Assembly: GCF_001447785.1 (NCBI RefSeq)
Contig: NW_015170898.1
Span: forward strand, 1,206,549 to 1,270,548
Length of the DNA stretch: 64,000 nucleotides
From: Gekko japonicus
Lineage: Eukaryota
Direction of reading: 5' to 3'
Part shown: positions 54,609-55,312 of the stretch, one piece after another
Position numbering within the stretch: position 1 is the stretch's first letter
Layout of the letters: each line of letters opens with the position of its first letter
Made by a program: the position numbers and the translations under genes
The notes under the pieces: generated by a model
Told to the model about the DNA's origin: nothing
The model's database searches: none
Seen by the model: the letters and a program-made list of their open reading frames with translations, nothing else

Positions 54609-55312
54609 CCGGCAGAGAGGACTTCCAGAGGTGGGGCGGCTGGTTCTGCTCCTTGGGGCAGTAGACCTGCCCGTTCCAGCCGTTGGTGATGGCCCAGGGC
54701 TGGTAGCCTTCCATGGGCAGCATGGACTCGTGCCGGGGCTCGCCGGGGCCTCCGAGGGTGGGCACCACGGGCATATCCAGGTAGCCGGGCACGGGCTGGT
54801 AGGGTCCGGCGGCGGCGTAGCCCTGGTAGAAGGCGAACTCCTTGGCGCGGGAGGTGAAGTCCTCGCCGGCGGCGGCGGCGGCGGCGGCCACCGAGGTGTC
54901 CATGTACTTGTCGGCGAAGGAGGCGGCGGCGGGCTGGGCGCAGGACTTGAGGGCGGCGTTGTGGTGGCTCATGCGGCACGGGTAGTAGCCGCTGCCGAAG
55001 TAGCCGTAGGGCAGGGCGGCGGGGCCGGAGGAGCCTTGCACGGCGGCGGCCGAGCAGGGGCTGCACTGCTTGACCGGGGGGCCGGGCTCGGCCATGCCGG
55101 CGGCGGCGGCGGGCGCCTCGCTGGAGGTGTAGGCGGCGCCCCTGAAGGTTCCGGCACTGGCTGGCCGCCGCGAAGTTGGTGCCCGCCGCCGCCGCTGCCG
55201 CCGCCGCGTGGAAGCAGGCTGCCATGTTCTTGTTGATCTCCTCCAGGCTGTTGTCGTAGAGGAACATGACGGGCTCGATCCAGCGGGGATGGAGGAGCAC
55301 GGAGGCTGTCAT
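54609..55312 (-). CDS. HOXA13: HOXA13 exon 1, frameshifted in this sequence near 55140-55147
   Basis: [23 protein letters not shown]...QCRNL is in one frame; [10 protein letters not shown]...KQCSPCS...[13 protein letters not shown]...SRAKEFAFY...PHLWKSSLP is in another. Donor G|GTAATG at 54609/54608. Exon is 704 nt (2 mod 3) but must be 1 mod 3 to join exon 2 in frame. Confidence 0.9.

Follow-up and report, generated by a model that had tools for sequence, protein, structure and literature searches.

A Hypodactyly-like frameshift in the first exon of an assembled, Gekko-like HOXA13 gene is probably an artefact at a GC-rich predicted hairpin

The product of the mouse Hypodactyly (Hd) allele of HOXA13 is reportedly basic and lacks the homeodomain. 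At the DNA level, Hd is a verified 50-bp germline deletion in exon 1 with a limb phenotype (PMC4612600), and the rare homozygous mice that survive are infertile, according to the available text of PMC13063620. For HoxA13 exon 1 in general, PMC4612600 finds that in snakes, amphisbaenians and caecilians dN/dS is low and selection has not relaxed. In lizards, HoxA13 expression is seen in limb buds, tail and genitalia (PMC6791295), and hoxa13 is upregulated during tail regeneration in the tokay gecko (excerpt of PMC11715542). Because exon 1 is constrained, Hd homozygotes are infertile and HoxA13 is used in limbs, tail and genitalia, fixation of an Hd-like allele in a limbed gecko appears improbable. 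The literature searched, with subscription journals and supplements outside its scope, listed no earlier report of a gecko HOXA13 frameshift.

A second class of described systems comprises errors that mimic gene loss. The false gene losses treated in the available sections of PMC9516821 share with the locus studied here an indel with nearby substitutions, a GC-rich first coding exon and a gapped assembly, and false SNPs and indels are biased there to GC-rich first exons. Those errors were confirmed by read mapping, whereas our case is built on comparison and context. Illumina sequence-specific errors are triggered by inverted repeats and GGC, which also hinder assembly (abstracted from PMC3141275). 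Draft-era HOXA13 models of Anolis, Bubo bubo and Buteo japonicus likewise cease to resemble HOXA13 in this GC-rich part of exon 1, while start and homeodomain were kept. In Anolis carolinensis XP_016851499.1 (222 aa) the similarity to HOXA13 ends right after CRNLMGP and resumes at the end of exon 1; a later model of the same species, XP_062813377.1, is intact; it has 328 aa and comes from a 120-Mb sequence. In the UniRef models of Bubo bubo and Buteo japonicus, the greater part of exon 1 is lost close to this position. As far as protein models can tell, the broken Anolis and bird versions read as draft errors at this site. They differ from our locus in being annotated protein models only, and in Anolis there is the later intact counterpart.

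Here we compare with these systems a HOXA13 gene located in a stretch of 64,000 nucleotides (the window). Its features are, in the order of transcription:

55309..55326, minus strand: five-codon upstream ORF (ATG at 55326, TGA at its end, 5 aa), the stop of which overlaps the HOXA13 start
55145..55312, minus strand: HOXA13 exon 1, codons 1-56, normal frame (54/56 residues identical to Gekko kuhli)
55220..55222, minus strand: codon 31, Ala where relatives have Glu or Asp (E or D in 55/55 motif-matching proteins)
55214..55216, minus strand: codon 33, Cys where relatives have Gly (G in 55/55 motif-matching proteins)
55178..55206, minus strand: 5' arm of an inverted repeat, GCG-coded poly-Ala (29 nt, 79% complementary)
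55141..55144, minus strand: junction, four bases in place of 12 codons, net -32 nt, +1 frameshift (from alignment with G. kuhli)
55089..55117, minus strand: 3' arm of the inverted repeat, GCC-coded poly-Ala, predicted to pair with 55178..55206
55093..55095, minus strand: internal AUG (M84 in the intact protein), start of a 243-aa frame (from translation)
54609..55140, minus strand: exon 1 after the junction, open in the HOXA13 frame (177/177 residues identical to G. kuhli; placed by the tree)
53298..54608, minus strand: intron with GT donor and AG acceptor in the sequence
53053..53297, minus strand: coding part of exon 2 with an intact homeodomain (Pfam PF00046, 1-57/57, E 5e-20)
53272..53274, minus strand: codon 254, Thr where relatives have Ala (A in 44/44 motif-matching proteins)
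53186..53188, minus strand: TAA ending the shifted 271-aa frame (from translation)

The identity of the gene follows from both exons. Exon 2 encodes a complete homeodomain of paralogy group 13 (PF00046, positions 1-57 of 57) and is identical to G. kuhli HOXA13 at 79/80 residues. The best named matches of the downstream part of exon 1 were squamate HOXA13 proteins; the N-terminal HoxA13 domain PF12284 was detected in the 3' piece of exon 1 barely above the cut-off (27.3 vs 27). Within a HoxA cluster, the gene takes the 5'-terminal position, with A7-, A9-, A10- and A11-like genes in order and on the same strand. The A9 and A11 identities are backed by the Pfam domains Hox9_act and DUF3528, and the remaining two genes are presumably A7 and A10, as judged by their motifs. 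Exon 1 has an open frame in the A7-, A9- and A11-like genes.

A sequence-only reading had proposed for this exon a deletion frameshift in the frame class of Hd, and its account of the assembled bases was borne out. At the junction (vertical bar), the HOXA13 minus strand reads TGC CGG AAC CTT CAG G|GGC GCC GCC TAC ACC TCC AGC, with the N-terminal and the downstream part offset in frame as described. When exon 1 (55312-54609) is joined to exon 2 (from 53297), translation indeed gives the anticipated 271-aa product ending at the TAA at 53188-53186. Instead of running in a single open frame from M1 to the homeodomain, the assembled sequence shifts at 55144-55141, i.e. after 56 codons as compared with reportedly about 25 in mouse Hd. 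The shifted tail comprises 215 aa, 27% of which are Arg, has 62 Lys and Arg residues vs 7 Asp and Glu and a predicted pI of about 12. Thus, as assembled, an exon-1 deletion leads into an Arg-rich frame and the homeodomain is lost. The segment following CRNL is missing as claimed, and its size, previously put at about 30 nt, could be refined: G. kuhli HOXA13 has 12 codons between L56 and G69, where the window has four bases (CAGG, 55144-55141), amounting to a net loss of 32 nt (+1 mod 3). The frame class is therefore that of the mouse deletion, -32 and -50 both being +1 mod 3; however, Hd was verified in animals, whereas the lesion in the window is known from one assembled sequence. Provided that M57 and S68 of G. 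kuhli also occur in this species, the genetic code implies that the junction is not a clean deletion: about three junction bases are left unexplained, because CAGG cannot supply the start of an ATG and AGG does not encode Ser. Random sequence read by chance does not account for this break in a conserved frame. The frameshift is present in the assembled sequence; in the animal it is probably not.

This distinction is suggested by comparison with relatives. The closest relative was HOXA13 of G. kuhli (KAL8165347.1, 326 aa), a species of the Gekkonidae, with 54/56, 177/177 and 79/80 identical residues in the two pieces of exon 1 and in exon 2, respectively; the next-best protein reached 163/177 in the middle piece. 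In a tree of 26 rows, hand-picked from the proteins found and comprising squamates, one turtle and one bird, the window and G. kuhli were paired at 99/94 support, and most of the deeper forks were weak. By these measures, the sequenced animal is likely a Gekko, and species of this genus are fully limbed. The earlier idea of a real allele in a limb-reduced squamate found no support, and a limb-reduced host was rejected, since the tree places the window with G. kuhli. The proteins of the two share the same poly-Ala lengths, but that of G. kuhli is intact, possessing the 12 codons as well as E31, G33 and A254. Alignment to HOXA13 of related squamates, which had been recommended as a check, showed the relatives to be intact: the segment is kept in frame in all of the 40 best-scoring among 138 relatives, which include Rhineura, Lerista and 13 snake records, so that snakes and an amphisbaenian retain the frame. 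Moreover, 14/14 aligned database proteins have residues at the junction point, the first of which is Met. These data also bear on the view that a limb-reduced lizard carries HOXA13 as a young pseudogene, to which we assign a nearly negligible probability. One frameshift together with three private substitutions at invariant sites could be taken as incipient decay, but the sequence groups with a limbed genus, no change is seen in the homeodomain, at either splice site or over the 177 exon-1 residues after the junction, and limbless squamates keep HOXA13.

The junction is further distinguished by its sequence context. It is flanked by a 29-nt inverted repeat (55206-55178 / 55117-55089, 79% complementary), whose arms are poly-Ala tracts, one coded by GCG and the other by GCC. 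In the predicted fold (centroid structure), the junction falls within the hairpin loop at 55158-55141. The 136-nt tile at the junction folds at -48.0 kcal/mol, which is equalled by none of the 1839 N-free tiles of the window; the most stable separate site reaches -38.2 kcal/mol. Most of this stability stems from composition, because the z-score is only -2.05 and 5/200 shuffled sequences fold as well. Over the 50 nt on either side of the junction, the GC content amounts to 0.79 and exceeds that of 99.9% of 100-nt tiles; the GGC/GCC density at the junction ranks among the top 0.1%, and HOXA13 exon 1 contains the GC-richest 100-mer of the window. The site fits an assembly error in a GC-rich first exon in its high GC content, its GGC motifs and its inverted repeat, and in that close relatives are intact (G. 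kuhli; 40/40 of the best 40 of 138).

We consider it most probable (probability about 0.92, judged from sequence comparison and context) that the missing 32 bases reflect an assembly or sequencing artefact in an otherwise ordinary gene, and that HOXA13 is likely intact in the animal. The collapse in a GC-rich draft favored by the sequence-only reading is thereby supported, though not proven, by the position of the hairpin, the N gaps in the window, the intact congener and the Anolis precedent. The complementary GCG/GCC alanine tracts would pair into the stable predicted hairpin, whose loop would hold the missing codons. At the hairpin, coverage by short reads would likely be thin and error-prone, and an assembler or gap-filler would then likely have joined both sides across the loop, a mis-join that would leave a few stray bases and probably two nearby miscalls. 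In line with an artefact, G. kuhli is intact and identical over 177/177 downstream residues, and in the available text of PMC4612600 purifying selection acts on HoxA13 exon 1 even in limbless clades. On the other side, the hairpin is only moderately more stable than composition provides and would favor a real deletion too, the N gaps attest draft quality only, and one substitution (A254T, at a site invariant in 44/44 matching proteins) lies in exon 2, far from the hairpin. The accessible sections of PMC9516821 also report far fewer frameshift errors in Illumina-based assemblies than in others. At least one Gekko draft was made from PCR-amplified Illumina libraries (PMC4673495, as excerpted); the platform used for the window may differ.

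The hairpin is likewise a conceivable route to a real deletion. There is a small chance that a limbed gecko naturally carries an Hd-type HOXA13 frameshift, either segregating or fixed with rescue from the internal AUG, and tolerates the basic product, which in mice harms the digits. In the segregating version, which we regard as very unlikely, slippage driven by the hairpin would have created a heterozygous deleted allele encoding a basic Hd-like protein, and this allele would have been taken into the haploid consensus. Messenger RNAs with the stop codon in the last exon generally escape NMD, and the stop of the shifted frame is in the last exon, so its mRNA would probably do so. The mouse Hd allele demonstrates that deletions in exon 1 with this frame class are able to arise and survive (PMC4612600). 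However, a heterozygous allele leaves unexplained two substitutions located 70-80 nt upstream as well as the stray junction bases, and it should be very rare, whereas false indels in GC-rich first exons are documented (PMC9516821, available sections). No protein with the shifted tail was present among 49 matches of at least 175 aa, which is weak evidence in view of database clustering and the length limit.

The statement that the rest of the gene shows no decay had to be corrected, as the window HOXA13 carries three private substitutions (E31A, G33C and A254T) at otherwise invariant sites. They were screened against 66 HOXA13-like proteins, 55 of which match the motif at sites 31-33 and 44 the exon-2 motif; site 31 is E or D and site 33 is G in all 55, and site 254 is A in all 44. 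N51S was dropped as a private change, being common to G. kuhli. A254T, at a distance from the hairpin in exon 2, could represent a genuine difference between species. The density of substitutions is higher before the junction (2/56 codons) than after it (1/258), an excess that is not significant (Fisher p 0.083) and that is predicted both by local miscalls and by relaxed selection on an out-of-frame N-terminus. The latter would apply if the deletion were fixed, the first 56 codons representing merely an out-of-frame upstream segment, and if a functional 243-aa homeodomain protein were made from the AUG at 55095, a scenario that we find hardly credible. Indeed, translation confirmed that this AUG, which is in strong context, opens a 243-aa frame with the normal C-terminus and homeodomain. 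Nevertheless, rescue is weaker than had been suggested, as initiation at 55095 would need to bypass three upstream AUGs in the shifted frame, at 55312, 55267 and 55225 (in the last, a strong context, position -3 is A and +4 is G), and because these feed the Arg-rich frame, the Hd-like product would dominate. Besides, codons 1-30 are the same as in G. kuhli, and local miscalls produce the same distribution of substitutions. Three differences from a congener are not unusual either, because close pairs show 0-1 (four lacertid pairs) or 1-6 differences (four snake pairs).

Searches for further copies were negative. No intact or frameshifted HOXA13 protein of the same species was found among 89 matches of at least 311 aa, 49 of at least 175 aa and 2 of less than 179 aa; the three protein searches count as weak negatives, owing to database clustering and length limits. 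A 23-nt pattern from the junction flank had 0 matches in metagenome contigs. Of the 24 sequencing runs listed for the window, 20 contain part of 53000-55500, with shares of 0.78 and 0.71 of the sampled words in the best two; as such shares do not locate the missing words, they carry no weight here.

Either outcome would matter. Exon 1 of lizard HOXA13 contains a predicted GCG/GCC hairpin at which drafts and gene models appear to break repeatedly, and if the lesion is an artefact, it serves as a practical caution: screens for gene loss, primers and expression counts can go wrong when they rely on a draft of this kind. A real lesion, in contrast, would give mouse Hd a natural counterpart among limbed reptiles, testing the dispensability of the HOXA13 N-terminus and the toxicity of the basic product outside mammals.

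The draft character of the window is apparent from five N runs totalling 724 N. One gap of 133 N (22693-22825) lies inside the coding exon 1 of HOXA10, with the frame kept on both sides; the others are at 3113-3398, 10818-10955, 13285-13422 and 23873-23901. The idea that N gaps mark GC-rich sites was abandoned: a clearly GC-rich flank (0.76) was found at just 1/5, and the gaps therefore speak for draft quality rather than for GC failure itself. Two of the gaps share a length of exactly 138 N, pointing to scaffold gaps of estimated size.

Some minor observations concern other places. In HOXA9 exon 1 (minus strand, 12582-12581), four residues present in 5/5 aligned relatives are absent in frame, and there is an insertion of three Ala upstream. 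The gap could be a trait of the lineage or another collapse; as no gecko comparator was found, it was left out of the count of artefacts. For Rhineura floridana, there is a 158-aa 'Hox-A13-like' model (XP_061469369.1) on a 232-Mb sequence in addition to the full HOXA13 on a 92-Mb one; the short model is possibly a partial duplicate. Finally, the window contains at 58287-58618 a stretch in two copies, set off from each other by 165-168 nt and 96-97% identical (blocks of 109 nt and 34 nt), representing a tandem duplication or a false duplication.
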